Below, piece by piece: positions 3,083 through 17,790 of a DNA stretch of 64,000 nt. Origin of the DNA: Phage NC-G; the sequence record MK310184; one strand, 5' to 3'. A model generated the notes under the pieces. It did no database searches and was not told the origin of the DNA. It was given only the letters and a program-made list of their open reading frames with translations. Numbering within the stretch: position 1 is the stretch's first letter; the number at the start of each line of letters is the position of its first letter. The position numbers and the translations under genes were made by a program.

Positions 3083-3124
3083 ACGGGTTCCTTAAAGGTA
3101 AATATTTTAATTAGCCTGTTCAAG

Positions 3125-4044: not shown

Positions 4045-4048
4045 AATA

Positions 4049-4065
4049 CCTCCTGAGTATAGGAG
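4049..4065 (-). promoter_or_regulatory. Hairpin sequestering the gene e Shine-Dalgarno
   Basis: Minus strand CTCCTatactcAGGAGG immediately 5' of the e ATG; a GATAAATA late-promoter-like motif lies just upstream (plus 4068..4075). Confidence 0.5.
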
Positions 4066-4078
4066 ATATTTATCATTC

Positions 4079-4528: not shown

Positions 4529-4760
4529 CGTCTCGTTTCCATGATTGGTTAAAAATATCTTGCATAATAATAATTTCAAGGCGTGTTTCTGTTGATGGAC
4601 TTTCACTATTAGATACTTGAACCATATAGTCGGAAATAGGTTGGAACATATCCAAGTCGCTTTCCAAATCTTCTTTTATTTTCTCTTCTGATGTTCCTGT
4701 GTCATAGGAATACAGATATGAATCACACGACTCGGATTTAATATAAATCGCAATACTCAT
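4521..4760 (-). CDS. Hypothetical small acidic protein, 79 aa
   Basis: ORF in the track; its TGA overlaps the nudE ATG. Confidence 0.45.
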   Translation of the reverse strand: MSIAIYIKSESCDSYLYSYDTGTSEEKIKEDLESDLDMFQPISDYMVQVSNSESPSTETRLEIIIMQDIFNQSWKRDDE

Positions 4761-5344
4761 TTACGGCATTCCTCAATAAAAGAATTCAATGTATTTTTCT
4801 TAGTGATATCGTCGTATAGCTTTTTAACTTTAGAAATACGAAAAGGCACTTCAATAACTGCAGTCCATAAAAATGATGCGATAAGACCTAAGATAGCCGC
4901 AGACATAGCTGAAGCGAATACAGAAATAGGCAGGTCGTTATCTGTTGTCAGGAAAAACCCTAGGAGTGGGAAAAATAATATACCCATCCAAACATAGAAT
5001 CTAGAACTCACCAATTTGTCATATTCATCACTCCACGTACGAAAACCATATTTTTCACTATAACAAATCAATGGGTCCGGTGTTTGTTCTTTATGTGGTT
5101 TCGCTTGCCACCCATTTACGATATAACCCATTCTGAACTCCTCAATTAAAAGTCGTTTCATTTCAGCAGTACAGCCTGACCAATCTACTGTACTGGCTGA
5201 AATTCCTTCATCACCATCATCAAGATTCAGCCAGGACTTTTTAATAATCATATTCTCACCACTTGGGATAATAATTCCGGCATTTTCTGACCTACGGATG
5301 AAGTTTGTATCAATACCCATACACCCAGGTTCATAAAGGGCCAT
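4757..5344 (-). CDS. Hypothetical membrane protein, 195 aa, ending in FIEECRK
   Basis: Two hydrophobic segments (FYVWMGILFFPLLGFFL and AAILGLIASFLWTAVI); C-terminal motif shared with two other ORFs. Confidence 0.5.
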   Translation of the reverse strand: MALYEPGCMGIDTNFIRRSENAGIIIPSGENMIIKKSWLNLDDGDEGISASTVDWSGCTAEMKRLLIEEFRMGYIVNGWQAKPHKEQTPDPLICYSEKYGFRTWSDEYDKLVSSRFYVWMGILFFPLLGFFLTTDNDLPISVFASAMSAAILGLIASFLWTAVIEVPFRISKVKKLYDDITKKNTLNSFIEECRK

Positions 5345-6030
5345 TACCAGCCCTCCATAGGGAATTCCAGATAAACTTGGGCATTAACGCGGATTTCATT
5401 GGTAATATTTTTAACACGGTCAGTGTTACGAGATACACGTCCAAACCAGCGCCAGCCGTTACTTACCGTACGAGAACCAGTATGCCAGGTTTGCCAATCA
5501 AACTGCAAGAGTGTACGGTCCGGAGCTTCCCACTGTTCTAATTCACCTGATTCAATTTTGGCCAAGACTTCTTTATGCCATTGGCGATAAATCAATTCAC
5601 CTTCTGGGATTTCACTAAAGGTGGCTTCACCGGTAGCAAAATGGGTAGGACACACATCAGCGTTAACAAGACCAAGAATGTGTTCAGACAAATAGTGAGG
5701 ATTGTCATAATCGGGTTGACCTGCAGTAATAAAATGTTGGCCCGTTGGAATAGGTGGACGTGGAACATCGTCGTGGTGATAACCTGGGATAGCCGGATAC
5801 CAGCCAGGCATCAACATATGCACACGTGAATCAAACACTACTTGATCATTATTCCAATCATCAGGCAAGTTCATAATAAAAGAGCGAGTAATAGGACCAC
5901 CATTATTATAAGCAAATTCTAAACTACAGTTGAAGAACATAGGCTCGTTCTTGATTTTATCATTAGAAATACCGCCAGCAAAACCACCTACTGCACGAGC
6001 TTTAGAATTAAAAGTTTTCGGACCGTTCAT
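5344..6030 (-). CDS. Hypothetical protein, 228 aa
   Basis: Long ORF, same strand, abuts neighbours. Confidence 0.5.
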   Translation of the reverse strand: MNGPKTFNSKARAVGGFAGGISNDKIKNEPMFFNCSLEFAYNNGGPITRSFIMNLPDDWNNDQVVFDSRVHMLMPGWYPAIPGYHHDDVPRPPIPTGQHFITAGQPDYDNPHYLSEHILGLVNADVCPTHFATGEATFSEIPEGELIYRQWHKEVLAKIESGELEQWEAPDRTLLQFDWQTWHTGSRTVSNGWRWFGRVSRNTDRVKNITNEIRVNAQVYLEFPMEGW

Positions 6031-6044
6031 AATATTTTCCTCGC

Positions 6045-6257
6045 TTACTTTTTGTTGAAAAAGTACATTTTACCTTTAGGAGATAAGGATACACGAAGTG
6101 CGTTACCAATACCAACTGAACATTTAACCAGGTCAGCAGATTTCAATTCACCAAATGCTTGACGAAGGTCACCGTCACGAGTGTTAACCATCAGACATTT
6201 AGCACCAGCTGCACGAACTTCGTTTAACATGTTGATTGCTTGGTTAGAAAGTTTCAT
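6045..6257 (-). CDS. Hypothetical small protein, 70 aa
   Basis: Start at MKLSNQ preceded by GGAGAAT; promoter cassette directly upstream. Confidence 0.45.
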   Translation of the reverse strand: MKLSNQAINMLNEVRAAGAKCLMVNTRDGDLRQAFGELKSADLVKCSVGIGNALRVSLSPKGKMYFFNKK

Positions 6258-6284
6258 TTTATTCTCCATTTCACTCTGTTGTTT

Positions 6285-6325
6285 TGATAGGTCTATAGTA
6301 TCACACCTATAGACCTTGTACACTG
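6285..6325 (-). promoter_or_regulatory. Early promoter plus stem-loop cassette (PeSL-like)
   Basis: Minus strand GTGTACA, then GGTCTATAGgtgTGATACTATAGACC (9-bp stem enclosing an extended -10), then conserved leader CTATCAAAACAACAG. Confidence 0.5.
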
Positions 6326-6335
6326 TTTTATGCAA

Positions 6336-7295
6336 TTATTTTTCGAAAGGGCGAATTAAATGTTGGTTACGCTTAAACCGGTTGATGTAGTCACTTTCAC
6401 CTAGGGTCTTATACATATTCACTACAGCTTGGTAGTTTTCCCAGGCGTACTCACGGAACCACCCGGAAGTAATTGAGGTACACACTTTCTCAAGAGCCAT
6501 ATAAAAACTTAACGATGGTGAAATATTAAAGTCATTAGGAACCTGCGAACGTTCTAGTGCCAACACACAGGTTTCTTCATATACACCAGCCAGTTTAATA
6601 GCTTCAGGCAAAGCTTCAAACTTCTCACGCGAGGTCATGACTTCAGAACCATCTTTCATATAAAAGGTATATGCCGGACGTCCAGCCAATGCCACGGCTT
6701 CATGAATAGAGTCATGGTCTAATGTATAAATGGTATCATTAAAGAACGATGATTTGTTAACGTCTAATTTAGGGTGGGAATAGCTCAACGTTTCTTTCTG
6801 ACGTTGCAGCATGATTTCTTGGAGCTCTTCATTCAAGGTTACACCTTTATTACGAAGGTATTTGATGTGAGACATCGTCTTCAGAAAGAACGGGTTGTTC
6901 TTCAAATATCGATGGCTCATTTTGATAGCCAGACAGATATCAGGCGTGGCCCAATAGAAACCAGTAAGACGGTCCTTTTTAATATGATTTTCAGCATATT
7001 TCAAAAGACGATAGCTTGAAGTGAAATCTTCGTCTTGGAGCTCACCGGTGATTTCTCGTACGTTAGTCAGAGCACGGACAATATAAGCTTCAAAATAGGT
7101 TTCTTTACCATTGTACATACATTTAAAGGCTTGGACATCAGGGTTATCCACAGGAACATGGGCACCAAACATCCGAGCTTTAAAGTGATTCCACGAGCCT
7201 TGGTCGGCAATGAAATCCCAATCAGAATTTTCGATATACTTACTTTCAATCAAACCAGCGTGGTGCAGTGCACGAGAACCAATAACTAGCATCAT
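6336..7295 (-). CDS. Hypothetical protein, 319 aa
   Basis: Long ORF with ATGATG start and GAGGAAAATATT Shine-Dalgarno; no family recognised by eye. Confidence 0.55.
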   Translation of the reverse strand: MMLVIGSRALHHAGLIESKYIENSDWDFIADQGSWNHFKARMFGAHVPVDNPDVQAFKCMYNGKETYFEAYIVRALTNVREITGELQDEDFTSSYRLLKYAENHIKKDRLTGFYWATPDICLAIKMSHRYLKNNPFFLKTMSHIKYLRNKGVTLNEELQEIMLQRQKETLSYSHPKLDVNKSSFFNDTIYTLDHDSIHEAVALAGRPAYTFYMKDGSEVMTSREKFEALPEAIKLAGVYEETCVLALERSQVPNDFNISPSLSFYMALEKVCTSITSGWFREYAWENYQAVVNMYKTLGESDYINRFKRNQHLIRPFEK

Positions 7296-7308
7296 AATAT
7301 TTTCCTCA

Positions 7309-7476
7309 TTAATAAAGACGAGTTACTTCATATTTACCCAATTCAGATTTTTTTGCTTCAATTCGAGTAACAGCAAGATTAGCAGCCTCTAGTGAAGAAA
7401 ATTGGACCACTTGGGAAGTATTCTGCCTTACGCCACCTTGTGGGTGAGTAACAAAAACAATAAGAACATTATACAT
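7309..7476 (-). CDS. Hypothetical small protein, 55 aa (below the ORF-track cutoff)
   Basis: ATG preceded by the same GAGGAAAATATT module used by the adjacent gene; translates MYNVLIVFVTHPQGG... Confidence 0.35.
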   Translation of the reverse strand: MYNVLIVFVTHPQGGVRQNTSQVVQFSSLEAANLAVTRIEAKKSELGKYEVTRLY

Positions 7477-7497
7477 AATATTTTCCTCAGAGTAAAC

Positions 7498-7737
7498 TTA
7501 AATTTCAGCAACATAATCGTTATGCAACTCCCACATATCATCAGAATTATTCTTAATGATAGGAATTATCTCATTAGAGATTTCTTCTGCATAAGGGTCA
7601 TTGATACAGTGGGCATCTTCAAAACGAACACCGTAATCGGACTTCTTATAGGCAAAGCCATAAATCTTTTTAAACTTGGCACGACTAATTCGTACCGGCT
7701 CACCAGACTTATCAGACAGTGGAGAGTAATACCACAT
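7498..7737 (-). CDS. Hypothetical small protein, 79 aa
   Basis: ORF with GAGGAGAACATT Shine-Dalgarno. Confidence 0.4.
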   Translation of the reverse strand: MWYYSPLSDKSGEPVRISRAKFKKIYGFAYKKSDYGVRFEDAHCINDPYAEEISNEIIPIIKNNSDDMWELHNDYVAEI

Positions 7738-7781
7738 AATGTTCTCCTCATGTTTGTGTAGGGTAATAGTAACACAAGTTT

Positions 7782-8111
7782 TTAGAGTTGTACATCACTT
7801 CTGCAATATTCTAAAAATAATTTATCGTTGTCTACGGTATCCCAACGTCGCCAAGATGGATTCCAGACCAAAGCATTGTCACCGCAATCATTGAGCTTAA
7901 AATGGTCATAGTACATAGCTATGCGTTTAGTCTCGTCACCGGAGAACCCTAGTATAGGCTCGCCGTGGGTATGATACATATGATGGTGCATTGAGAGGTC
8001 GCATTTATAAAACATCTCACGTTTACCACGAACGAACAAGAAAGCTTGCCCGTTCATATAGAATTCTTTATCGGTTTTCAAAAGATATTTGAATACTGAA
8101 TCTTTGTGCAT
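7782..8111 (-). CDS. Hypothetical His-rich protein, 109 aa
   Basis: Start at MHKDSV with GGAGGACTT Shine-Dalgarno; contains HHHMYHTHGEP. Confidence 0.45.
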   Translation of the reverse strand: MHKDSVFKYLLKTDKEFYMNGQAFLFVRGKREMFYKCDLSMHHHMYHTHGEPILGFSGDETKRIAMYYDHFKLNDCGDNALVWNPSWRRWDTVDNDKLFLEYCRSDVQL

Positions 8112-8141
8112 AAGTCCTCCTACCACATCCTTGTGGCTATA

Positions 8142-8369
8142 TTATTTTCCTAACGAAATACGAGTAGGTTTTTTGCCAAAGTATTCTTCATAAGAACCAT
8201 CTAAACGTCCTGCTTTAGACCGGCAATATGAATCATACTTTTTGTAATAAGTCATCTCAGTATTATAACGTGGGTGTCTATCAGCCATAATAATACTTAG
8301 TGGCCAACCTTTGGCATAATCGCGAAGACCATTTATTTTACGAATGTATCTTTTCTTTAATTTTAGCAT
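8142..8369 (-). CDS. Hypothetical basic small protein, 75 aa
   Basis: ORF in the track; ATG overlaps the upstream stop. Confidence 0.4.
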   Translation of the reverse strand: MLKLKKRYIRKINGLRDYAKGWPLSIIMADRHPRYNTEMTYYKKYDSYCRSKAGRLDGSYEEYFGKKPTRISLGK

Positions 8370-8587
8370 GAGCTCGGATACCAGATTTTACCATCGGAAC
8401 GAGCAACGAAGGTGCGACCAGCTTCTTCACCATAACAAGAGCTATTCAGCCAATCTTCAAGACGAACTTCACCATCGTAATCGTCTAACTCAACACCAAA
8501 ACTTTGAGCAGAAGCCATATCTTTTACTTTCTTATACAATGCAGCCAGTTCAAGAGCAGCTTTTTCTAATTCATTAATATCAGACAT
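8363..8587 (-). CDS. Small acidic protein, tandem family member 5, 74 aa
   Basis: C-terminus IWYPSSC; N-terminal amphipathic helix; stop plus GGTGATAAA plus ATG coupling with the upstream gene. Confidence 0.5.
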   Translation of the reverse strand: MSDINELEKAALELAALYKKVKDMASAQSFGVELDDYDGEVRLEDWLNSSCYGEEAGRTFVARSDGKIWYPSSC

Positions 8588-8596
8588 TTTATCACC

Positions 8597-8806
8597 TTAG
8601 CAAGACATAGAGGATGTAAACCAGAAACCTTCACCATCTGGGATACCGTAATCATCACGGACCCATTCGTAATCATCATATTCCGGACTAGAAGCCGGAA
8701 TATATTCTTCGCCACCGGCGTGGAAGTGCTGACCTGTTTCGTCAGCCACGGACTGGCCTTTACGTACTAATTCACGGATTTGTTTTTCAATTTCATCAAT
8801 AGTCAT
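8597..8806 (-). CDS. Small acidic protein, tandem family member 4, 69 aa
   Basis: C-terminus FWFTSSMSC; same architecture as neighbours. Confidence 0.5.
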   Translation of the reverse strand: MTIDEIEKQIRELVRKGQSVADETGQHFHAGGEEYIPASSPEYDDYEWVRDDYGIPDGEGFWFTSSMSC

Positions 8807-8815
8807 TTTATTACC

Positions 8816-9013
8816 TTAGCATTCGTAAGAGGACGATACCCAAGAGGTACCGCTAATAGTAATACAACCGTTATAAAGCGTGATATGTCGTTCTAGGTCA
8901 CGAACACCATCGATATAGATATCGGCTTCTTCACGTTCTTCTTTACAAATCTGGATAACGTTTTCAATAGCTGCGGCGGCAGTACGGATTGCACAATCTA
9001 ATTCACGAGACAT
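8816..9013 (-). CDS. Small acidic protein, tandem family member 3, 65 aa
   Basis: C-terminus SWVSSSYEC. Confidence 0.5.
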   Translation of the reverse strand: MSRELDCAIRTAAAAIENVIQICKEEREEADIYIDGVRDLERHITLYNGCITISGTSWVSSSYEC

Positions 9014-9022
9014 AATATTTCC

Positions 9023-9304
9023 TTAACATTCAGAAGAGGAGGACACCCAGCCGCCATTTTCCAGGTCGGTTGTGTAGTCATGGGTATTAACAATAGCCCA
9101 TTCAGGATGACCATCTTCTTCCCAATGAGCAAGGTCAGCTTTCAAGGCGCCAGGAGAATAATAGTCACCGCCCATACCGCGAGCAGGGTATATATTAAAA
9201 TGAGTCTCATATTTGTCTGCAATTTCCTCAGCGCGGCGAATAGCTTCATGGATTTCTTTTACTGCGGCCAGAAGCTCTGGATGGTTGTGGTTATCATTCA
9301 TCAT
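9023..9304 (-). CDS. Small acidic protein, tandem family member 2, 93 aa
   Basis: C-terminus GWVSSSSEC. Confidence 0.5.
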   Translation of the reverse strand: MMNDNHNHPELLAAVKEIHEAIRRAEEIADKYETHFNIYPARGMGGDYYSPGALKADLAHWEEDGHPEWAIVNTHDYTTDLENGGWVSSSSEC

Positions 9305-9313
9305 AATAGTTCC

Positions 9314-9604
9314 TTAGCACAGCGCTGAAGAGGAGACCCAAGCACCAACTGTAACGACGCCATTTTCAACTTCACCGCCGTTGTTTTCGATTTCATCTTT
9401 AAACCACTGGGAGCATTCATAACCGACCGGATAGTATGTACGACCTGAGCCATAATCACCGGTCCCGAATTGAATACCGTACTTATCGGCAATAGCTTCA
9501 CATTTATGTTCGATGATATCTACTTTACCGAGTAGAGCATAGATAGCCTTTTCTGCAGATTTCTCGTCATTGTATTCGGGGATTTCAATTTCAATTTTAT
9601 TCAT
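9314..9604 (-). CDS. Small acidic protein, tandem family member 1, 96 aa
   Basis: C-terminus AWVSSSALC. Confidence 0.5.
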   Translation of the reverse strand: MNKIEIEIPEYNDEKSAEKAIYALLGKVDIIEHKCEAIADKYGIQFGTGDYGSGRTYYPVGYECSQWFKDEIENNGGEVENGVVTVGAWVSSSALC

Positions 9605-9954
9605 GATTTACATTCCTTAATAAAGGTTTCAAGGTCATTACATTTGGTTTGTTTTACATACTCATTATAATTAGCCATCTCTAAAGCATATCTCTTACGG
9701 ATGGGAGCATTCAAAGCATTTGTGTGGCAAATATCATACACAACAGGGATAAAATAAGCTACAACTGCCGGGGCGATTATCATATAGAACCCCATCTCAA
9801 TTGGCATGACTCCTTCTATTGCAGCCATAACCGTGGTCATTACCAGGCCAACCAGGCCGCCGAGCATACCGGTGGCAATTCCTAATAATAAATTTGAGCC
9901 AATATCATATTCAGCCAATTGATAAACATGTGATGAAAGACTAGGCCGCTCCAT
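9601..9954 (-). CDS. Hypothetical membrane protein, about 117 aa, ending in FIKECKS
   Basis: Track ORF begins at a GTG; the internal ATG at MERPSL has an AAGAGG Shine-Dalgarno; two hydrophobic helices. Confidence 0.45.
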   Translation of the reverse strand: MERPSLSSHVYQLAEYDIGSNLLLGIATGMLGGLVGLVMTTVMAAIEGVMPIEMGFYMIIAPAVVAYFIPVVYDICHTNALNAPIRKRYALEMANYNEYVKQTKCNDLETFIKECKS

Positions 9955-10483
9955 TTTGAACCTCTTTAGCGTATTCACGACATTCTTTAATAAAATTATT
10001 AAGCTTACGTTGCTGTTTACGACTTTCTAATGTATACTCGTCAGCCAAGGCAAGAAGCTCATCTTTATCGTAATTTTTAATATCCGAATAACTCGGGCGG
10101 CGGTCGACCATTCCAAATACATCACCGTTTTCTAGTGCCACATAACATACTAAATGATAATCATCATCTGCAACATTAATATGTACACAGTCAGTACTCT
10201 CGTTTAAAGAATATACTGAATATCTCACTCCGGCGAATTTAGCGCTCTGTACACCCAGATTTATGTCAATAATTTCTAAAGCTTCTGCAAAAGAAAGGTC
10301 TTCAGCTAAAGCAAAGATAAAGGGTAATTTGGTAGTATCGCCACGGCTAGATGTTCTGCTTAAGAAATCGTTTGAATAGCCTAGGTCTTGGCGAATTCTA
10401 TAAAGAACTGAATTGGTTTCATGGGAAAGACCACTATTTTTAAACCAATCAATATTTGATATAAGGTTATCATATAAACTCAT
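9941..10483 (-). CDS. Hypothetical protein, 180 aa, with FIKECR near the C-terminus
   Basis: ORF in the track. Confidence 0.45.
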   Translation of the reverse strand: MSLYDNLISNIDWFKNSGLSHETNSVLYRIRQDLGYSNDFLSRTSSRGDTTKLPFIFALAEDLSFAEALEIIDINLGVQSAKFAGVRYSVYSLNESTDCVHINVADDDYHLVCYVALENGDVFGMVDRRPSYSDIKNYDKDELLALADEYTLESRKQQRKLNNFIKECREYAKEVQNGAA

Positions 10484-10531
10484 AATATTCTCCTCTCCTC
10501 CAAATAGGGAGACCGAAGTCTCCCGGTAACA

Positions 10532-11125
10532 TTACTTAAGTGAATTAATGTAGTCTTCGATATCAGCTGAAGTCGTATCCATTCCAACTTGAGGGCCTTT
10601 AAACGTTTCTACACGCATCAGGGTGTCTTCAATATCAATCTTAGTCAGTGCAGCGATTTCAACAACGTCATCGGCAGTAGCAATACCCAATGCAGCCATA
10701 TTACGAGTTTCACGGATATATTCCAACTTAACTGCTAGTTCCTGTCGAGAGTCATCAAGTTCCTTGACCTTCAGTTTAATTTCATTACGCATTTCGATAT
10801 AATCGTCAGCTTTCTTACGAAGCTGTGTAGCCGTACGACGATAAAGGAGGCCAAGTTTAGCATGCACCTGGACATCGGCGCCTTCTTTAATCAGTTTACG
10901 AATTTCGCGTTCTTTAGAAGCAGCGAGCTGGTCTTTTTCATTTGCCAATGCACGAATGCGTTTTTCTTCATTCACCGACTTAACATGAGCGGTCTGGAGT
11001 TCAGTAATTTTATCAATCAGGGTAGAAGCAGCTTTAGTGTACTGGTCTTCGATTGACAGGTTCTGAGTCATTGCAGTACCCAGTTTAGAACGGATGAATT
11101 CAACAATTTTCTTTAAAGTATTCAT
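10532..11125 (-). CDS. Coiled-coil protein, possibly PspA/IM30-like, 197 aa
   Basis: Start at MNTLKK with GAAGGAAAT Shine-Dalgarno; long charged heptad-like helices; promoter cassette upstream. Confidence 0.45.
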
Positions 11126-11149
11126 AGTATTTCCTTCAGTCGGTTGGTA

Positions 11150-11190
11150 TTTTGTAATCCATGAGGACATTATACCCTGTCCTCTGAGGG
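11150..11190 (-). promoter_or_regulatory. Early promoter plus stem-loop cassette (PeSL-like)
   Basis: Minus strand GTTTACAaccctcaGAGGACAggGTATAATGTCCTC: -35, -10 and a GAGGAC/GTCCTC stem around the -10. Confidence 0.5.
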
Positions 11191-11200
11191 TTGTAAACAT

Positions 11201-11473
11201 TTATTTCATTTTTGCGAGGCAGATTTCGTTGGCTTCCCATTGAGCTTGCTTAATAATAGCTTTGGATACAGGAACCCTTTGGCCGTAAGTTTTTGACGTT
11301 GAGAGAACAATATATTTGTTTGCCTCATTATGCCAACCTAGTGATTTTTCACCATGAGTACCTTTAACCACAGCTGACACCTCAACAGAGCAACCGCCAT
11401 CAGAAATCTTGGTTTCTACAATCCATTCATTTCTCTCGACAGCTTCAATTTCCGATCTCCTTTTTTTCTTCAT
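11201..11473 (-). CDS. Hypothetical protein, 90 aa
   Basis: ORF in the track. Confidence 0.4.
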   Translation of the reverse strand: MKKKRRSEIEAVERNEWIVETKISDGGCSVEVSAVVKGTHGEKSLGWHNEANKYIVLSTSKTYGQRVPVSKAIIKQAQWEANEICLAKMK

Positions 11474-11600
11474 ACATGGCGGCCCAATCGGTTTTTGCTA
11501 AGTTGAAAGCAAGAGCTTTCTCTAATTCTTTGGCAACTTTTTGTTGTTCGGGTGTTAATGAATTATACAACTCTTGCATTTCTTTATCTTCGATATTCAT
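11445..11600 (-). CDS. Hypothetical small protein, 51 aa (below the ORF-track cutoff)
   Basis: ATG with GAGGAGAACATA Shine-Dalgarno directly downstream of a promoter cassette; translates MNIEDKEMQELYNSLTPEQQK... Confidence 0.35.
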   Translation of the reverse strand: MNIEDKEMQELYNSLTPEQQKVAKELEKALAFNLAKTDWAAMYEEKKEIGN

Positions 11601-11617
11601 TATGTTCTCCTCAAATT

Positions 11618-11656
11618 ATGGGCTCATAATATCTCAATCATGAGCCCATGTAAACA
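11618..11656 (-). promoter_or_regulatory. Early promoter plus stem-loop cassette (PeSL-like)
   Basis: Minus strand GTTTACAtGGGCTCATgattgagaTATTATGAGCCC: 8-bp stem enclosing the -10. Confidence 0.5.
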
Positions 11657-11657
11657 A

Positions 11658-11921
11658 TTATTTCATATTATTGAAATAATCTTCCGCATCAAAATCGTTA
11701 TCGTGGTAAACTTTGGTAGACAATTTAACATAACCTTCGGCAGCGAACATATTAACCACAACCTTTACAGTATACCATTGTCCATCATCATTACCCATTA
11801 CGGCGTAAGTTTCAAATATAGGATGGTCATCACCTATAACCTTAATATCGTTAACAGTAGCACCAAATTCTTCAGGAACGCATTTCATAAAGAAATTAAA
11901 CAATTCACCATAATTATCCAT
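11658..11921 (-). CDS. Hypothetical acidic protein, 87 aa
   Basis: Track ORF begins at a GTG; the ATG at MDNYGELF has a GAAGGAGAG Shine-Dalgarno. Confidence 0.45.
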   Translation of the reverse strand: MDNYGELFNFFMKCVPEEFGATVNDIKVIGDDHPIFETYAVMGNDDGQWYTVKVVVNMFAAEGYVKLSTKVYHDNDFDAEDYFNNMK

Positions 11922-11944
11922 TTTACTCTCCTTCACACTGTTGT

Positions 11945-11990
11945 TTTGATAGGTCTATAGTATCATGTTTAAAGGAGGTGTAAACAACTT
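11945..11990 (-). promoter_or_regulatory. Early promoter cassette (PeSL-like)
   Basis: Minus strand GTTTACAcctcctttaaacaTGATACTATAGACCTATCAAAACAACAG, same leader as the other cassettes. Confidence 0.5.
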
Positions 11991-12018
11991 TGTGAAATTA
12001 TTTTTAGTTTAAACCCCC

Positions 12019-12040
12019 TAAAAGGAGACCGAAGTCTCCT
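12019..12040 (-). terminator. Rho-independent terminator hairpin
   Basis: GGAGACcgaaGTCTCC stem flanked by A/T runs just downstream of the 12045 gene stop. Confidence 0.5.
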
Positions 12041-12044
12041 TTCA

Positions 12045-12662
12045 CTATTTACGGGTCTTTTCGAACTGTGCTGCGTCACCTGCAAGGCGGCCCGCTTGGC
12101 GAAGTTTGTTATTGATTTCTTCGCGCATAGGCTGGGTATACTTAAGGCCTTCAACCGTCAGATAGAGGCGATAAAGGTCCGGGGTATCCAGGTTGTTAAT
12201 GTGTTGACCATTACGAAGAGCGTTGAATTCACGAACAAGGTGTTTAGTTTCAGATTCGATTTCCGAAACCAAAGAAGCCAGCTGGTTATATTTTTTAACT
12301 ATAGTGCTGGTGTCAAACTTGATTTTAGGTTTAGGAGCTTCTTTTACAGGCTCTGCTTTAGGTGTCGGTTTCGGTGCTGCAACTTTGGTCTGAGCCGCGG
12401 GTTTAGAAACAGGAGCTTTGGCTGGTTTAGCAGGCTTAGTAGCGCCACCGGCTACGATATCTTTAAAAGCTTTGGAAGCTTTGTAATATTCTTTCTGGTT
12501 ACTAGTATCAAAACCATACATATCATAGACGTTTTTAAAGAATTCGGTAGTGGTTTTAGTCCCAGAAATTTTATCATAAGCCGCTTGCCACATATCTTTA
12601 GTCATGCGAACGCCGGCTTCACTCAGAACGCTTTCGTTCAAAAATTCATTGTAAGTTTTCAT
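12045..12662 (-). CDS. Internal-protein-like capsid-targeted protein with a Pro/Ala/Lys-rich linker, 205 aa
   Basis: MKTYNEFLNES leader; KPAKPAKAPVSKPAAQTKVAAPKPTPKAEPVKEAPKPK low-complexity segment; late-promoter motif upstream. Confidence 0.6.
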   Translation of the reverse strand: MKTYNEFLNESVLSEAGVRMTKDMWQAAYDKISGTKTTTEFFKNVYDMYGFDTSNQKEYYKASKAFKDIVAGGATKPAKPAKAPVSKPAAQTKVAAPKPTPKAEPVKEAPKPKIKFDTSTIVKKYNQLASLVSEIESETKHLVREFNALRNGQHINNLDTPDLYRLYLTVEGLKYTQPMREEINNKLRQAGRLAGDAAQFEKTRK

Positions 12663-12690
12663 TGGTATTCCCTAAGTTAATTAACTTATC

Positions 12691-12698
12691 TATTTATA
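12691..12698 (-). promoter_or_regulatory. T4 late-promoter motif TATAAATA
   Basis: Exact TATAAATA on the minus strand about 30 nt upstream of the 12662 start codon. Confidence 0.5.
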
Positions 12699-12700
12699 CA

Positions 12701-12727
12701 AAAAGCCCGACCTTTCGGAAGGGCGGT
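12701..12727 (-). terminator. Terminator hairpin
   Basis: GCCCgacctttcggaaGGGC stem followed by a T-run on the minus strand. Confidence 0.45.
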
Positions 12728-12730
12728 GAA

Positions 12731-13285
12731 TCAGTTCTTATAGAATCGGAACGGGTTTACATGGAAGGCTAACATAGCTTTAGGGATTTTACGAGACAAA
12801 AGACTCTTAAGCTTCCAGCCACAGTACACTCGAAGGTAAAATGTGATTCCACCAACCTTAAGATAAGGAACTGAAGCAAAGACTCCCCATGCTTCGTCAT
12901 TCCACATCCACAACCAACCATGGTGAGCTTTATCAGGAGAACCGGATTCAACATCAGGATTACCACGATAATGGAATTCTGAGCTACAATCGCGACCTAG
13001 TTTATGGTAAGCAAAGTTATAAGCTTTATTTCGCCATAGCCAAGCTACTCTCTGGAGATAAACGCCGAAAGGTAGTTTTCTGATTTTAGCCCAACGTTTA
13101 ATATGGCCCTTGTCACCGTCAATTGGATTATCATATGTCATCATCCAATCAAAACCGTATGGCAATTTACCGGTCTTTTTATTGTAGAAAGGAACTACAA
13201 AAGGCGCAAGGATAACAGCCAGAACCATAGAGATAAAATCTAGTGGGACCAACAGAATCCAACTCAAATATTTTAAAAGTTTCAT
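12731..13285 (-). CDS. Hypothetical N-terminally membrane-anchored protein, 184 aa
   Basis: N-terminal hydrophobic segment LSWILLVPLDFISMVLAVILAPFVV; late-promoter motif upstream. Confidence 0.5.
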   Translation of the reverse strand: MKLLKYLSWILLVPLDFISMVLAVILAPFVVPFYNKKTGKLPYGFDWMMTYDNPIDGDKGHIKRWAKIRKLPFGVYLQRVAWLWRNKAYNFAYHKLGRDCSSEFHYRGNPDVESGSPDKAHHGWLWMWNDEAWGVFASVPYLKVGGITFYLRVYCGWKLKSLLSRKIPKAMLAFHVNPFRFYKN

Positions 13286-13311
13286 ATTATTTCCTAAGTT
13301 AGTTTACTACA

Positions 13312-13319
13312 TATTTATA
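13312..13319 (-). promoter_or_regulatory. T4 late-promoter motif TATAAATA
   Basis: Exact TATAAATA on the minus strand, directly after a terminator hairpin and upstream of the 13285 start. Confidence 0.5.
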
Positions 13320-13320
13320 C

Positions 13321-13348
13321 AAAAAAGGCCCAACCTTTCGGAAGGGCC
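13321..13348 (-). terminator. Terminator hairpin closing the tRNA cluster
   Basis: GGCCCaacctttcggaaGGGCC followed by TTTTTT on the minus strand. Confidence 0.5.
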
Positions 13349-13399
13349 TTTAACCTAGGGTAACCTTGTCGGGGTTCCACCTGCTAGGGCAAGTGTTTG

Positions 13400-13491
13400 T
13401 ACGAAACGCCGGGATTCGAACCCGGTTATTAAGCAGTTGACGCTACTCAATATTTTTAAAAGGCCATATCTCGACCATATCCGAACGTTCC
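13400..13491 (-). ncRNA. tRNA-like RNA with acceptor stem and T-arm but no canonical anticodon arm
   Basis: Perfect T-arm CCGGG-TTCGAAT-CCCGG; 7/7 acceptor pairing between CGGAACG (13491..13485) and CGTTTCG (13407..13401); no D or anticodon stem could be built by hand. Confidence 0.35.
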
Positions 13492-13559
13492 GTCAAAACG
13501 CTACTCGGCTTACGGCAAAGATATTTCCTCGAATCGATAATTCGATGCGCCGTTTCAGC

Positions 13560-13660
13560 TGTGATGTAAGGGAACATTAACAGATCGTAAAGATTTGTTA
13601 ATGCCAGTCCTTACCCAGGGAACATCAGTCCGACGACTTACCGGTAGCGACCCGGTTTCT
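13560..13660 (-). ncRNA. Structured small RNA candidate between the tRNA-like element and tRNA-Arg
   Basis: Nested inverted repeats (CATTAAC/GTTAATG, GTAAGG/CCTTAC, TGATGT/ACATCA, CCGG/CCGG), no ORF; T4 carries two stable small RNAs in its tRNA cluster. Confidence 0.3.
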
Positions 13661-13663
13661 TGT

Positions 13664-13739
13664 TTGGTCGAGACAGTAGGGATCGAACCTACGACCCAGG
13701 ACTTAGAAGGTCCTTGCTCTTCCTTCTGAGCTATGCCTC
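13664..13739 (-). tRNA. tRNA-Arg (anticodon TCT)
   Basis: Hand-folded cloverleaf: acceptor CGAGGCA/TGTCTCG, D-stem GCTC/GAGC, anticodon stem AGGAC/GTCCT with loop CTTCTAA, T-arm GTAGG-TTCGATC-CCTAC, encoded CCA. Confidence 0.8.
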
Positions 13740-13743
13740 GTAT

Positions 13744-13818
13744 TTGGCGGACGTGCATGGATTCGAACCATGGACCAATTGATTAACAGTCAACTGCTCT
13801 ACCACTGAGCTACACATC
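13744..13818 (-). tRNA. tRNA-Asn (anticodon GTT)
   Basis: Hand-folded cloverleaf: acceptor GGATGTG/CACGTCC, D-arm GCTC-AGTGGTA-GAGC, anticodon loop CTGTTAA, T-arm CATGG-TTCGAAT-CCATG, encoded CCA. Confidence 0.8.
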
Positions 13819-13822
13819 CAAA

Positions 13823-13896
13823 TTGGTGACCCTGGGTGGAATCGAACCACCATCCAGCGATTATGAGTCGCTCGCTTGACCGTCCAGCTACAGGGC
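13823..13896 (-). tRNA. tRNA with CAT anticodon (Met, or Ile if lysidine-modified)
   Basis: Hand-folded cloverleaf: acceptor GGCCCTG/CAGGGTC, anticodon stem AGCGA/TCGCT with loop CTCATAA, T-arm GGTGG-TTCGATT-CCACC, encoded CCA; D-stem slightly imperfect. Confidence 0.7.
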
Positions 13897-13973
13897 CAAT
13901 TCTATTATGAAAGGTTCTTTGAGGGAAGAACCTTTGGTAATAGAGGGTACTTATTAATAATAACACATAACTC

Positions 13974-14264
13974 TTAAAGCATATTAATGTATGTGCTTTT
14001 AATACAATTAAGATTCAAAGGATTTTTAAAAATATCATAATCCTCTGGACCTGTTTCAGTTTCAATAAAGAAATCAAAATTCACCGTATTGAATTTACGG
14101 TCTTCAAAAACCAATTTAACATTGGAATGGCTACGACCTATTTCAACACTTTCAACTTCAAAACACGTTAAGATGCCATAATCGTCAATCAATTGCTTTG
14201 CGGCATCTTGGTCTGATTTATACCCGTTATTAGCCTTGTCACCTATAGATGCGTAAAGAATCAT
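13974..14264 (-). CDS. Hypothetical protein, 96 aa
   Basis: ORF in the track. Confidence 0.4.
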   Translation of the reverse strand: MILYASIGDKANNGYKSDQDAAKQLIDDYGILTCFEVESVEIGRSHSNVKLVFEDRKFNTVNFDFFIETETGPEDYDIFKNPLNLNCIKSTYINML

Positions 14265-14668
14265 GCTTGACCCTCGTCTACAATAGTATGGGTGATGGCA
14301 TTAACAATCTGCCACCAGTCAAAACGATCAGAACCGTAACGAGGCTTTTTCTCATTTTCGTTAATAATATCACGTAGTTCGTCTTCAGAAAATGCTTTAG
14401 CGATTAAATCGGTATAGCCGCCACGTGGATAATAATTATCACCTGCAAACAAAAGGAAATTTACCTTTCCGGAAGGAATATACGCTTCCTTAGGATATTT
14501 GTTTCCTGCATGGTCTACCACTTCAATATAACGGTAAGGAATATCAGTACTTTCAACCCATTGCCAAGCCGCGGCAGGGGATTCAAAAGCATCAACACCT
14601 AAACGGTTATCTTCATCTTTAGACGGGTTATTTTCATAATCCGCATATACATAATATTCAACGTTCAT
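14261..14668 (-). CDS. Hypothetical protein, 135 aa
   Basis: ORF in the track with 4-nt overlaps to both neighbours. Confidence 0.45.
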   Translation of the reverse strand: MNVEYYVYADYENNPSKDEDNRLGVDAFESPAAAWQWVESTDIPYRYIEVVDHAGNKYPKEAYIPSGKVNFLLFAGDNYYPRGGYTDLIAKAFSEDELRDIINENEKKPRYGSDRFDWWQIVNAITHTIVDEGQA

Positions 14669-14853
14669 TATTCACCTTTAGAGATTTTATCCATAACAAA
14701 AGAGATTGAACCAATTAAAAATGCCACTACTAAAGAGATTATATTCTCGGAAGTTGAAAGCATATCGAGCATGAATCCTGCAAACATACTAAAGCCAAAA
14801 GCGGTAACAGCGGCCAGTGCAGTAACATTTCTAATTAATTCGCAACGTTTCAT
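14668..14853 (-). CDS. Hypothetical small membrane protein, 61 aa
   Basis: Start at MKRCEL with GAGGAGAAT Shine-Dalgarno; single hydrophobic helix; promoter cassette upstream. Confidence 0.4.
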   Translation of the reverse strand: MKRCELIRNVTALAAVTAFGFSMFAGFMLDMLSTSENIISLVVAFLIGSISFVMDKISKGE

Positions 14854-14874
14854 TTTATTCTCCTCAGTAGTTGA

Positions 14875-14915
14875 TAGGGCTATAGTATCACCACTAGAGC
14901 CCGTTGTACACAATT
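14875..14915 (-). promoter_or_regulatory. Early promoter plus stem-loop cassette (PeSL-like)
   Basis: Minus strand GTGTACAacGGGCTCTAGtggTGATACTATAGCCCTATCAAC. Confidence 0.5.
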
Positions 14916-15187
14916 TATTTCAAATAAATTGCATATTTTTTATAGCCAGCTGTCTCGTGGCGCAACCCTTTGTCATTAGCAAAGCGTTCAATATTATTAA
15001 TTTGATTTTGGTCGAGTTCTGAAATATCAAATACAAAAAAGTTTCGCTTATTGCCTAAAGTTACATGATTAGTCAAATCGATGTTATAGAGATGATTTAT
15101 ATTATCAATCATGGCCTTAACAGATTTGTTGATTTTTACTTCTTCATTAAGAATGGATTCAGCGATAAATTCTTGATAAGTTTTCAT
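14915..15187 (-). CDS. Internal-protein-like capsid-targeted protein, 90 aa
   Basis: Start at MKTYQEFIAESI; the track ORF extends upstream into the promoter leader. Confidence 0.55.
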   Translation of the reverse strand: MKTYQEFIAESILNEEVKINKSVKAMIDNINHLYNIDLTNHVTLGNKRNFFVFDISELDQNQINNIERFANDKGLRHETAGYKKYAIYLK

Positions 15188-15214
15188 TTTGATTTCCATT
15201 TGGATGTTTTGTTT

Positions 15215-15255
15215 TGATAGGGTAATAATATCACTACCCCATCTAAAAGTAAACA
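15215..15255 (-). promoter_or_regulatory. Early promoter plus stem-loop cassette (PeSL-like)
   Basis: Minus strand GTTTACTtttagatGGGGTAgTGATATTATTACCCTATCAAAACAAAAC; this leader plus the first codons are duplicated at 15547..15607. Confidence 0.5.
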
Positions 15256-15266
15256 CGGTTTATAAA

Positions 15267-15578
15267 CTATTTTATTCCACGTGATGCAATTGTGTTCTGT
15301 CGTTTAACACCGGTTTGTTTAAAGTCGTGATTGTCGATTTGATCGGTGCGAGCAACTCCGAATGATGATTTGATCTTAGCTTTAGATCCTTTAGTTATAG
15401 AAATAAACATCTCGGAAGCCCCTTTCTTAAAGTCTGAAGCGATTACTTCAACGCCGTTCTTAGCAAGTGACTTCAGAATTGCATCCGCATACTCATCGTC
15501 AAGACCAGCCAGAGTATTAATAATGAATGTCTTTGGTGCAACAGAAGCTTCGGAGATAAATTCTTGATAAGTTTTCAT
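15267..15578 (-). CDS. Internal-protein-like capsid-targeted protein, 103 aa (position of T4 ipI)
   Basis: MKTYQEFISEA leader; paralogue of the 1336..1635 ORF; sits immediately upstream of 57B as ipI does in T4. Confidence 0.6.
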   Translation of the reverse strand: MKTYQEFISEASVAPKTFIINTLAGLDDEYADAILKSLAKNGVEVIASDFKKGASEMFISITKGSKAKIKSSFGVARTDQIDNHDFKQTGVKRQNTIASRGIK

Positions 15579-15604
15579 TTTGATTTCCATTTGGATGTTT
15601 TGTT

Positions 15605-15648
15605 TTGATAAGACTACTATAACATAGCCCTATAACATTGTAAACTGG
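15605..15648 (-). promoter_or_regulatory. Early promoter cassette (PeSL-like)
   Basis: Minus strand GTTTACAatgttatagggctaTGTTATAGTAGTCTTATCAAAACAAAAC. Confidence 0.45.
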
Positions 15649-15657
15649 TTTGTGAAA

Positions 15658-16350
<693 letters not shown>

Positions 16351-16358
<8 letters not shown>

Positions 16359-17112
16359 TTTTATTTCCTAATAATTTATCAATAGTGGTGTATAGTTCAG
16401 AAAGAGTGCCGTTATTTTCGACAACAACGTCACCAGGTAAAATTGGTAGACCCGCTTCAGTGATGTGCGAGTCTTGTACTTGACCGGTTTCAGCGCGAAC
16501 TACATGAATAATCGTAGCACCCATCGCTCTGAGCGAATCAATTTCGTGTGTTTGACGAACATCAGGTACGACATAGTATTTCGCATCAGAATATATTCTA
16601 TCAAAATAGTCTAAAGCGAACAACTTAACCCAATACATCTTATCAAATTGGTTAACAATAATATCGGTCCCAAGGGTCTGCATGAGGCGACGTACTGACC
16701 AATTGTTATTTTTATTTATTACTTCAAATAGCTGGTCTTTTGTTTCTTCAGACAAATACTGGACTGGGGTAAGACCATAATGATACGCGGTACGAACATC
16801 AATTCCTGGAATAGGAAGGATATTATTCAGCTTAACAATAGCATGTTCAAAGATATCAATAACATCATACGATTTTAAAGGAAGGGCTTCTTCACGGTCA
16901 TAACCGATGCCTTCAAAACAATTAAAATCCAATTTAGGCATATAGCTACGATCTAATACAGGGTCATCAGATATGTATTCATAAGCTTCTGCCAGATACT
17001 TTTTAATAGGACCAGCGAGTTGAAATTTTACGGAATCCATATTTTCAATTACATAGTTAGCAACGGTGTCCTTACCGCTACGTTTGATTCCTACAATTGA
17101 TATTAGTTTCAT
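16351..17112 (-). CDS. 1: Deoxynucleoside monophosphate kinase gp1
   Basis: P-loop GIKRSGKDT near the N-terminus; size and position match T4 gp1. Confidence 0.9.
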
Positions 17113-17702
17113 TATTTTCTCATAGATGGATGCATAGACATACGAGCCACACGTTGTTCGGCATACGAATCAATTTGTGGACGACCTGTAACTATTGTAC
17201 CATCTATTTCTACAGCAAACGATTTGAAGTTGAATGTTGCTGTAGCGATTATCGCTGGGTCGGAATCTTCTTTATAAGAGTACTGAATCTCGGAAAGGTC
17301 GGACGGCCAACCACCATAGTAATGAATGCTCATTACGATTTTCTGTTTGTTGTTATCAAGAATGTGGAGGGTGATAGCCTCCGGCTGACCTTTAGGGTGC
17401 CAGGCTTCGGATTCATGTGTTACATAGTTGTTTAATGATAACATCCATTTATAAATGTCCAACCATGATTTCAGCTCACGGTCTACAAGAAAGTTCACAA
17501 TCAAAGGGTCGAATTCTACAGTAGAACCTGGCAGTTTAGCACGGTTTATACCCTGGGTCGATCCTGGGACGTCTGAGACCGGAATATGGATACCCGGTAG
17601 TGTTACATCTTGTACGTTCAATTTGAATGCCTGCGTCATTCCTGAGTCACTAACCTCTAAGATAAAGTTAGTAGTGTTAGTTTGGTTAAATAAACCGTTC
17701 AT
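17112..17702 (-). CDS. 3: Tail completion / tube terminator protein gp3
   Basis: Gene order 1-3-2-4 as in T4; 196 aa. Confidence 0.8.
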   Translation of the reverse strand: MNGLFNQTNTTNFILEVSDSGMTQAFKLNVQDVTLPGIHIPVSDVPGSTQGINRAKLPGSTVEFDPLIVNFLVDRELKSWLDIYKWMLSLNNYVTHESEAWHPKGQPEAITLHILDNNKQKIVMSIHYYGGWPSDLSEIQYSYKEDSDPAIIATATFNFKSFAVEIDGTIVTGRPQIDSYAEQRVARMSMHPSMRK

Positions 17703-17790
17703 AGGATTCCTATATTGCTTAAGTCCTAGCCAGTGTATAATGGTCCTAGGTCTGTTCCATTCAATAACTGGCTGGGATAATAGATTAATA

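Follow-up and report, generated by a model that had tools for sequence, protein, structure and literature searches.

Why should one small gene after another on a single strand of a T4-type phage be preceded by its own early promoter, and what would a hairpin folded into the promoter itself be for? The window analysed here, a stretch of 64,000 nucleotides of Phage NC-G (sequence record MK310184), contains 13 T4-type early promoter cassettes, at 1688, 2151, 3163, 6322, 7794, 11197, 11654, 11984, 14910, 15253, 15644, 48991 and 53384, each named after the first base of its −35 hexamer. The cassettes are probably self-contained early promoter units, of which the hairpins would insulate and the repeated sequences serve as patches of homology. 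Motif statistics, stems, covariation, strand asymmetry and recombinant junctions were computed here; the early timing, the transcription start (+1) and the role of the hairpins we infer.

The best match to window positions 6000–16000 is phage MN04 (93.4% identity over 90% of the query), with 817 phage records matching altogether, and by its matches the source phage is a JS98/JS10-like T4-type coliphage of the genus Dhakavirus. Read from annotated relatives and T4, the gene order of window 1–19000 is vs – denV – internal proteins – e – nudE – e.x – tRNAs – trna.2-4 – internal proteins – 57B – 57A – 1 – 3 – 2 – 4, with all genes on the minus strand; to judge by this order, it is the classical variable region of T-even phages, with both internal-protein loci inside. 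Comparisons were made with eight Dhakavirus relatives, including UP19, JS10 and VR5, and T4 was read separately. Gene order is not constant in the group: the window gene at 3165–3563 is placed between ipIII and e (comparison range 2155–3563), its homologue in JS10 lies between denV and ipIII (L001 2942–3978), and in MN04 denV is entirely missing.

Where dinucleotide shuffling leads one to expect 2.4 ± 1.6 matches to the pattern T[TG]TAC[AT]-N16–17-TAnn[AG]T, the minus strand has 13 and the plus strand none, and with the TGn extension added there are 10 matches for 0.14 expected (a count that leaves out site 1688). Present at all 13 cassettes are a GTTTAC-type −35 (T4 positions −36 to −31), a spacer of 16–18 nt and a TAnnnT −10 (A−11, T−7), and 11 of them have TG at −15/−14, the exceptions being 11197 and 11654. 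In a position-weight scan of the 64 kb the 13 sites, all on the minus strand, score at least 15.9 and everything else at most 13.8, a separation that is circular because the matrix was trained on the same sites. Recovered independently by a repeat finder, the cassettes appear as direct-repeat families D3, D4 and D5. Every site lies directly 5′ of an open reading frame (ORF); 11 of the 15 minus-strand intergenic gaps of at least 40 nt in 1–16200 contain one, and cassette density is 0.68 per kb in that region versus 0.04 per kb in the rest of the window. The upstream gene's stop lies 0–60 nt before the −35 in nine of the 11 cassettes of 1–16200, with 1688 and 7794 as exceptions. A first-pass annotation, its coordinates lying close to the predicted transcription starts, had listed 11 sites with this promoter architecture, and all 11 bear it out (2151, 3163, 6322, 11197, 11654, 11984, 14910, 15253, 15644, 48991 and 53384); its list was incomplete, as 1688 and 7794, added by the position-weight scan and each with its −35 inside upstream coding sequence, had been missed. 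The cassettes are as follows (energies and z-scores are for folding from −35 to +9, scored against dinucleotide shuffles).

Cassette 1688: 1635–1708, minus; −35 TTTACG at 1688–1683, inside the 3′ end of denV; TGaTAGAAT with the −10 at 1665–1660; leader ...CTATCAAC; ATG at 1635 of an internal head protein gene starting MKTYQEFITE; no stem.
Cassette 2151: 2094–2171, minus, before denV; −35 at 2151–2146; TGaTATAGT with the −10 at 2129–2124; the −10 end and discriminator, GTGTTCTC, pair with the Shine–Dalgarno region GAGAACAC, the long-range type that masks the ribosome-binding site (RBS); relatives' matches end at 2097–2107.
Cassette 3163: 3082–3183, minus, before an IPIII-like gene; −35 at 3163–3158; −10 TAGTAT at 3141–3136; stem degenerate compared with that of T4 P-ipIII (AATTGTGA/TCACAATT); breakpoints at 3144–3165.
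Cassette 6322: 6257–6343, minus; −35 TGTACA at 6322–6317; −10 TACTAT at 6300–6295; predicted +1 near 6288; perfect 10-bp stem AGGTCTATAG/CTATAGACCT at 6289–6316 (−15.4 kcal/mol, z = −3.9); leader ATCAAAACAA; Shine–Dalgarno GGAGAATAAAA, a perfect consensus target of RegB; ATG at 6257; repeats D4/D5.
Cassette 7794: 7737–7814, minus; −35 TGTACA at 7794–7789 in the upstream coding region; TGtTACTAT with the −10 at 7771–7766; GAGGAG Shine–Dalgarno; ATG at 7737; no significant stem.
Cassette 11197: 11125–11217, minus, before the e.6 homologue; −35 at 11197–11192; consensus TATAAT at 11174–11169, in the loop of a 7-bp stem GAGGACA/TGTCCTC (11163–11184; −12.7 kcal/mol, z = −1.9); recombinant junctions in UP19 and VR5.
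Cassette 11654: 11600–11674, minus; −35 at 11654–11649; −10 TATTAT at 11631–11626; the strongest stem, 13 bp with one G·U, ATGGGCTCATGAT/ATTATGAGCCCAT at 11618–11649 (−20.1 kcal/mol, z = −6.8); ATG at 11600 of a frame-split phrog_8232 gene.
Cassette 11984: 11921–12042, minus, before the e.8 homologue; −35 at 11984–11979; TGaTACTAT with the −10 at 11962–11957; leader ATCAAAACAA; repeat D4; no short-range stem; spacer CTCCTT able to pair with the Shine–Dalgarno AAGGAG; a separate canonical terminator, GGAGAC-TTCG-GTCTCC-TTTT, just upstream at 12020–12039.
Cassette 14910: 14853–14930, minus, before trna.4; −35 TGTACA at 14910–14905; TGaTACTAT with the −10 at 14887–14882; stem GGGCTcTAG/CTAtAGCCC at 14877–14902 (5 + 5 bp with one mismatch, −13.6 kcal/mol, z = −2.5); Shine–Dalgarno GGAGAATAAAA; breakpoints at 14916–14920.
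Cassette 15253: 15187–15274, minus, internal-protein locus; −35 TTTACT at 15253–15248; TGaTATTAT with the −10 at 15230–15225; stem at 15216–15243 (GATGGGGTA.../...TACCCTATC, G·U pairs included, −16.1 kcal/mol, z = −4.8); leader and capsid-targeting MKTYQEFIAE; one copy of the 117-nt repeat D3.
Cassette 15644: 15578–15665, minus, internal-protein locus; −35 at 15644–15639; TGtTATAGT with the −10 at 15621–15616; stem at 15608–15633 (G·U pairs included, −10.7 kcal/mol, z = −3.4); leader and capsid-targeting sequence as in 15253; second copy of D3.
Cassette 48991: 48933–49011, minus; a lone cassette with full promoter, leader and GAGGAG Shine–Dalgarno, driving an 88-aa ORF antisense between gp23 and gp24; no stem; no co-directional gene upstream.
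Cassette 53384: 53326–53404, minus; weaker, TTTACA-N17-TGtTAAGAT, just downstream of hoc and before a 69-aa ORF; conserved leader and stem both absent.

Cassette 48991 stands among late structural genes: within 47059–51598 the major capsid gene gp23 comes first and then two gp24-like genes in tandem, of 427 and 426 aa, and the minus-strand ORF (48667–48933, phrog_6003) lies between gp23 and the first gp24, antisense to them. A further pattern match at 7496 (TTTACT-N17-TATAAT) was rejected as a promoter; its sequence is the Shine–Dalgarno and ATG of ORF 7309–7476, and the match looks like chance. That 55-aa ORF goes with a 161-nt unit (7313–7473) flanked by direct repeats of about 20 nt, and the unit is missing in five of the eight relatives, where the repeat is reduced to a single copy, with no promoter cassette involved. 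Generic scans of 1–20000 gave signals not separable from noise, with 68 sigma-70 promoter-like sites (57 in shuffles) and 16 terminator-like sites (14 in shuffles), and only the T4-specific pattern was informative.

The excerpted text of Nolan 2006 (PMC1524935) and Hinton 2010 (PMC2988021) gives the T4 early consensus as GTTTAC at −36 to −31, an A-rich −40 to −44, a GT-rich segment before −12, A−11/T−7 and C at −3 to −1, and that of PMC1524935 puts the −10 at −12 to −7, with transcription starting 7 nt further on. The window motif agrees with this consensus. In the 24 nt before the −35, A+T reaches 77% and A 45%, where the background has 60% and 30% (p = 4e-7), and the predicted +1, the seventh base after the −10, is A at all 13 sites. 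As these excerpts portray them, the catalogued T4 early promoters share with the window the GTTTAC, the GT-rich or TGn extended −10, the A-rich UP tract, the C-rich −3 to −1 and a place in front of early genes and novel ORFs; the descriptions there cover the promoter only, and embedded hairpins go unmentioned in them (PMC1524935, PMC2988021).

Downstream of the promoters the sites are less uniform than the first-pass annotation had it. Its conserved leader, (C)TATCAAAACA, stands at 6322, 11984, 15253, 15644 and 48991 and in part at 14910 and 1688, and among the 13 sites inspected is absent at 11197, 11654, 7794, 2151, 3163 and 53384; its GAGGAG-type Shine–Dalgarno holds, as a GGAG type, at seven of the 13 and not at the rest. 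The RegB target GGAGRAYARAA is matched at 11 of 11 positions at 6322 and 14910 and at 10 of 11 at 11654, 11984 and 48991, matches that would fit a fast inactivation of early messages. The C at position 9 to which T4 denV owes its resistance to RegB is also present in the window's denV leader, GGAGAACACTA.

The promoters would be read by the host sigma-70 RNA polymerase. Each cassette appears to be fitted into 40–125 nt between two co-directional small genes, and would consist in order of the upstream stop, an A/T-rich UP-like tract, the −35 (G)T(T/G)TAC(A/T), a 16–17 nt spacer, TGn + TAnnAT, a C-rich 6-nt discriminator, the +1 A, an unstructured A/C-rich leader, the Shine–Dalgarno and the ATG. 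About half of the cassettes would in addition form a hairpin with the promoter spacer as its 5′ arm. In what we refer to here as class A the 3′ arm would be the −10 and discriminator, and in class B the gene's own Shine–Dalgarno.

Class A comprises the significant short-range hairpins of 6322, 11197, 11654, 14910, 15253 and 15644. The other seven sites fold no better than shuffles from −35 to +9, and at 1688, 3163, 7794, 48991 and 53384 neither a stem nor a long-range Shine–Dalgarno pairing was found. The 5–9 bp perfect stem proposed for every site is therefore limited to six of the 13 and is not seen at two of the main sites of the first pass (11945 and 48945) or at its three weaker ones (2110, 3125 and 53370); the support sought for the stems in folding energetics came from those six alone, and covariation, described below, added to it. 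All six share one geometry, in which the 5′ arm comes from the spacer, TGn and some or all of the −10 sit in the loop, and the 3′ arm joins the −10 end to the 6-nt discriminator, with the helix ending at most about two bases from the predicted +1. The stems are followed by ATCAAAAC or ATAATTTG. The terminator scan called none of them, a scan that also missed the canonical hairpin at 12020–12039.

The six arm sequences differ while their complementarity is kept. Covariation was sampled in the promoters of the eight relatives, in T4 and in an IMG/VR scan for one subfamily, constrained in its 3′ half only, which returned 77 matches with 48 distinct cores, about ten per genome. The discriminator base N in TACTATAG-N-CC covaries with its partner 13 nt upstream of the −10 (Fisher p = 1.7e-5): in the IMG/VR sample, N = C is paired with G in 10 of 12 cases and N = A stands opposite G in 4 of 33. 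Compensatory change is seen between GGGAGCA/TGCTCC and GAGAGCA/TGCTCTC, and A–T, C–G, G–C and G·U occur at one same pair. At the corresponding T4 loci the arms are different and equally complementary, with a 13-bp perfect stem in P-ipII, the −10 in its loop, and a 9-bp stem in P-ipI. Of 39 distinct hairpins, 38 are more stable when folded as the sense strand than as the antisense (mean difference 3.2 kcal/mol), because 42 G·U pairs turn into C·A mismatches in the opposite strand, an asymmetry that points to selection on the sense transcript and argues against a duplex-DNA cruciform.

Many promoters that lack a short-range stem, in relatives and at T4 denV, have a spacer that opens with an anti-Shine–Dalgarno-like run (TCTCC, TCCTC or CCTCC), and this run pairs with the Shine–Dalgarno of the gene driven by that promoter. 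One such pair, TCTCCTGTAG/CTACAGGAGA, stands before denV and regB in relatives and before denV in T4; compensated variants are TCTCCAGTAG/CTACTGGAGG, TCTCCATTAG/CTAATGGAGA, TCTCCTCTGGTT/AACCAGAGGAGA and TCCTC/GAGGA. In an alignment of 19 sequences, 89.5% of the cells of this 10-bp class B helix are paired and four of the ten pairs change on both sides, with a covariation score of 0.284 (0.177 ± 0.019 in shuffles, none of 500 reaching it; slid controls at most 0.13). A promoter's own spacer and RBS are more complementary than swapped ones (permutation p < 0.0005, a test that is not independent since the sequences are related). Class B, seen in relatives and T4, would be represented weakly in the window by 2151 and 11984. 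Pairing of GTGTTCTC with GAGAACAC at 2151 lowers the unpaired fraction of the RBS from 0.70 to 0.36, a drop equalled by 13% of upstream-shuffled sequences, and pairing of CTCCTT with AAGGAG at 11984 lowers it from 0.85 to 0.32, equalled by 10%.

RBS-masking hairpins with an internal promoter are a paradigm in T4, with gene e, soc, 49 and I-TevI as its cases; in these classical cases the internal promoter is a late promoter and translation is confined to late times. Class B resembles the gene e type in that the Shine–Dalgarno would be hidden in a long read-through RNA and free in a transcript starting inside or after the 5′ arm, and differs from it in that the promoter is early and the anti-Shine–Dalgarno arm is the promoter spacer itself. 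The window's own gene e keeps the T4 arrangement: at 4045–4078 on the minus strand a late-promoter-like gATAAATA precedes a hairpin, CTCCT-atactc-AGGAG, that includes the Shine–Dalgarno, such that early read-through RNA would be untranslatable and the late transcript translated.

Common to both classes is a 5′ arm upstream of the predicted +1, and because of this position the hairpin cannot form in the promoter's own transcript; we therefore infer that only RNA read through from upstream promoters folds it. Insulation of each cassette would be its most likely function. In class A the upstream message would acquire a 3′ hairpin 10–25 nt past its stop codon, as an attenuator or a barrier to exonucleases, and in class B the RBS would be masked and the gene translated only from its own early transcript. 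Two stem-less cassettes fit a role on read-through RNA, 11984, which occupies the only roomy gap (123 nt) and has a separate terminator upstream, and 48991, the only cassette without a co-directional upstream gene. A further and tentative reading, less likely than not, is that the stems discriminate transcripts by origin, class A capping the upstream message and class B silencing the gene on read-through RNA; the cassettes would thereby be autonomous, hence freely movable, and their cargo confined to the first minutes of infection. This transcript-origin design, especially the class with the anti-Shine–Dalgarno in the spacer, was not found in the PeSL (promoter-early stem-loop) and T4 papers compared.

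Cassettes of 60–120 nt recur at 75–100% identity within and between genomes, and because they are repeated at such identity they can act as homology patches for ordinary homologous recombination, by which the genes between them are deleted, inserted or swapped. Chained alignments of 1–16200 to the eight relatives yield 54 breakpoint clusters; 19 of them fall inside cassettes, although these account for 8.4% of the sequence (binomial p = 4e-8). The clearest recombinants are three relatives, within 800 nt. In UP19, 11213–11648 is missing and the e.6 promoter is composite: its upstream half is that of cassette 11654, its spacer that of cassette 11197, and the two meet at the −35. JS10 is without 11612–11914, and an 11984-type leader is joined to the 11600 gene at the Shine–Dalgarno; VR5 lacks 11147–11942, and an 11984-type promoter is placed on e.6. 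Cassettes 15253 and 15644 form the 117-nt direct repeat D3, made up of promoter, leader and capsid-targeting codons; between the two copies the alleles vary among relatives, the internal-protein allele 15267–15578 recurring at 87–94% identity in ESCO47, MX01, Shigella phage phi25-307 and Tequatrovirus LF73P3. The promoter module AGGTCTATAG...CTATAGACCT precedes different genes in different genomes, and an 88-nt cassette used as query is matched at 1402 places in 698 phage records of several Tevenvirinae genera. Cassette-linked shuffling, which the first pass had also put forward, is supported by these chimeric sequences and by the swapped internal-protein alleles; because the junctions fall anywhere that cassettes share sequence, and not specifically in stems, ordinary homologous recombination is the likely route.

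Weighing against insulating hairpins and homology patches are several of our own results. Seven of the 13 promoters have no short-range stem, so that a stem is not required, and because a U tract follows none of the six class A stems these are not canonical intrinsic terminators. When RBS masking was computed at all 13 window sites, accessibility dropped only at 2151 and 11984; because neither beats shuffled upstream sequence, no general claim of masking is made for the window. Many covarying sequences share ancestry as paralogues or orthologues, and their counts are not independent events. The early timing and the +1 positions are those predicted by the T4 consensus. Breakpoints, finally, cluster at gene junctions in general, and the excess at cassettes (9 of 11, against 14 of 27 other junctions) is weak (Fisher p = 0.087).

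Among other explanations, the one that survives best, though it is improbable, is that the stems act as DNA, in cruciforms or single-strand hairpins that signal structure-specific recombination, as in the excision and integration of PeSL mini-circles, with the RNA fold incidental. T4 deletions ending at GGGC/GCCC inverted repeats are cited in PMC2839356, GGGC...GCCC occurs within the stems at 11654 and 14910, and the enrichment of cassettes at indel boundaries would be expected. A cruciform, however, needs both strands paired, and the antisense fold is the less stable in 38 of the 39 variants. The recombinant junctions, moreover, lie in shared sequence and not in stem or loop, namely in the −35 and UP tract (UP19), the Shine–Dalgarno and ATG (JS10), the leader (VR5) and the capsid-targeting codons (internal-protein loci), and the stem-less cassettes 3163, 11984 and 2151 are breakpoints too.

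Somewhat less probable still is a tuning of the promoter, in which the stem would, for instance, render open-complex formation or early-promoter shut-off dependent on supercoiling or on a phage factor recognizing the spacer/discriminator palindrome. The stem does always cover the promoter core, from the −35 end to about +1, and how T4 early promoters are shut off is, according to the excerpts of PMC3014915 and PMC2988021, not understood, the latter also relating that Alt stimulation of early promoters depends on positions not yet identified. Yet the arms differ wholly between sites, with no protein-recognition motif conserved, their G·U pairs favour RNA over duplex DNA, half of the promoters, consensus ones included, have no stem at all, and the 3′ arm of class B is part of the transcribed leader, some 25 nt beyond the −10. 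That the stems have no selected function and simply arise from the promoter consensus and the compactness of AT-rich intergenic DNA is very unlikely: the self-complementary CTATAG at the −10/discriminator boundary (as in TACTATAG) does form part of several stems and seven of the 13 promoters presumably work without one, but z reaches −6.8 against dinucleotide shuffles, the arms extend well past CTATAG and some are unrelated to it (GAGGACA/TGTCCTC and TGGGCTCAT/ATGAGCCCA), and the variation is compensatory, with T4 arms at corresponding loci different yet equally complementary.

The first-pass annotation had further taken every gene directly downstream of a cassette for a recent acquisition, and this does not hold. 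All cassette-driven genes belong to a PHROG family; four of the 11 promoter-driven genes of the region are present in all eight relatives (6045–6257, 7498–7737, e.6 and trna.4), and five have T4 homologues (denV, IPIII, e.6, e.8 and trna.4). T4 has promoters of the same type before denV, ipIII, e.6, e.8 and trna.4, and also before ipI and ipII at the corresponding internal-protein loci; because six homologous genes in T4 have such promoters, most cassette positions are ancient and recent cargo fails as a general claim. Cassette-driven genes are somewhat more variable, with a mean presence in 6.5 of eight relatives versus 7.0 (p = 0.03). As far as sequence comparison goes, mobile cargo is confined to the internal-protein alleles and the genes of 11201–11921. 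Two minus-strand ORFs in the latter interval, 11445–11600 (51 aa) and 11201–11473 (90 aa), match positions 1–48 and 43–132 of phrog_8232, and because these are consecutive parts of one family they represent one gene split by a frameshift near the A run gaagaaaaaaagg; a pseudogene, an error in sequencing or a programmed shift would each account for the split.

A family of internal-protein genes can be traced by its first codons. Seven minus-strand genes start with the T4 capsid-targeting MKTY(Q/K/N)EF(I/L)xE (repeat family D1):

1336–1635, 2155–2457, 2486–3082, 3165–3563, 12045–12662, 14915–15187 and 15267–15578, minus: capsid-targeting genes with the MKTY... start.

Five of the seven are in PHROG families of internal head or virion proteins. 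The other two, 3165–3563 (phrog_15461) and 12045–12662 (phrog_2280), are listed by PHROG as 'unknown function' and look like unannotated internal (injected) proteins; the second lies outside both classical internal-protein loci, between e.8 and the tRNA cluster.

Terminator-like elements are found in the same region. Two related UUCG-tetraloop hairpins stand on the minus strand, GGGAGAC-TTCG-GTCTCCC at about 10497–10520, without a T tract and directly before the ribosome-binding site GGAGGAGAGGAG, and GGAGAC-TTCG-GTCTCC at 12020–12039, with the T tract of a canonical terminator. Two copies, 81% identical, of a terminator and late promoter occur at 12688–12724 and 13311–13347 (minus), each consisting of GGCCC-TTCCGAAAGG-(T)TGGGCC, a T run and then TATAAATA, before genes 12045–12662 and 12731–13285. 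Indels of relatives end at or near these units (11998–12699 is missing in JS10, IME341 and 04086, and 12725–13540 in CLB_P2), and from sequence and position the pair looks like a late-promoter counterpart of the early cassettes. An insertion of 143–148 nt at 13398–13545, 3′ of tRNA-Arg, is missing in most relatives examined; T4 has its small stable RNAs rnaC and rnaD at the corresponding place, and the insertion has no match to Rfam families or to tRNAs. Over 1–20000 Rfam identifies three tRNAs and nothing else.

How do the cassettes relate to known systems? The PeSL was defined in RB49 and phi1 as an AT-rich tract holding the upstream stop, then a strong early promoter, a stem-loop that lies between −35 and −10 or overlaps the −10, a Shine–Dalgarno and a start codon (Arbiol 2010, PMC2839356). 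The window cassettes fit this structural definition in their sequence, with a stem at six of 13, and the first-pass identification of them as PeSL-type is upheld by the published layout, the PST/T4 consensus, the concentration in variable regions and the location at indel boundaries. Shared with the RB49/phi1 elements (PMC2839356) are the layout, stems that tolerate G·T pairs, clustering in variable regions before small accessory genes, a place at indel or replacement boundaries of close relatives and the existence of chimeric cassettes. Unlike RB49, with its near-perfect TTGACA/TATAAT, the window has a T4-type promoter (GTTTAC, TGn, TAyTAT), and its stems are AT-richer and without polyG/polyC. 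Termination, and mini-circles arising by cassette-to-cassette exchange, are experimental findings in RB49/phi1 only, termination with a G/C-rich RB49 stem (PMC2839356). T-even elements, with T4 early promoters and weaker AT-rich stems, are called analogues and not homologues of RB49 PeSLs (PMC2839356); in the passage of Arbiol 2010 that reports Repoila 1994, such elements flank both T-even internal-protein loci (PMC2839356).

Also close to the window are the PST/T4-type PeSLs, with promoter TTTACW-N17-TAYWAT (Comeau 2014, PMC4122927), and the T-even internal-protein elements; shared with the window are the promoter consensus, the loci denV–ip–e and trna.4–ip–57B, and a conserved leader followed by capsid-targeting codons, allowing allele swaps. 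PST/T4 stem-loops are described as lying just upstream of the promoter (Comeau 2014, PMC4122927), an arrangement found in the window only at 11984, whereas the window stems and those of T4 P-ipI, P-ipII, P-ipIII and P-trna.4, as read here, span spacer, −10 and discriminator. JS98-group phages are mentioned only in passing in the PeSL papers (PMC2839356, PMC4122927). The element type, its loci and its role in internal-protein gene shuffling are already published, and no new category is proposed. Going modestly beyond those accounts are the stems as sense-RNA structures excluded from their own transcript and the class with its anti-Shine–Dalgarno in the spacer, relative to a literature without the older T4 papers.

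Phage-therapy cocktails make use of Dhakavirus phages, whose variable regions are still annotated almost wholly as hypothetical proteins. In these genomes the cassettes are reliable markers of early transcription units and likely recombination joints. For the purpose of the PeSL stem, strand asymmetry, covariation and a 5′ arm placed upstream of the predicted +1 point to a role of RNA on read-through transcripts, and not to a DNA recombination signal.

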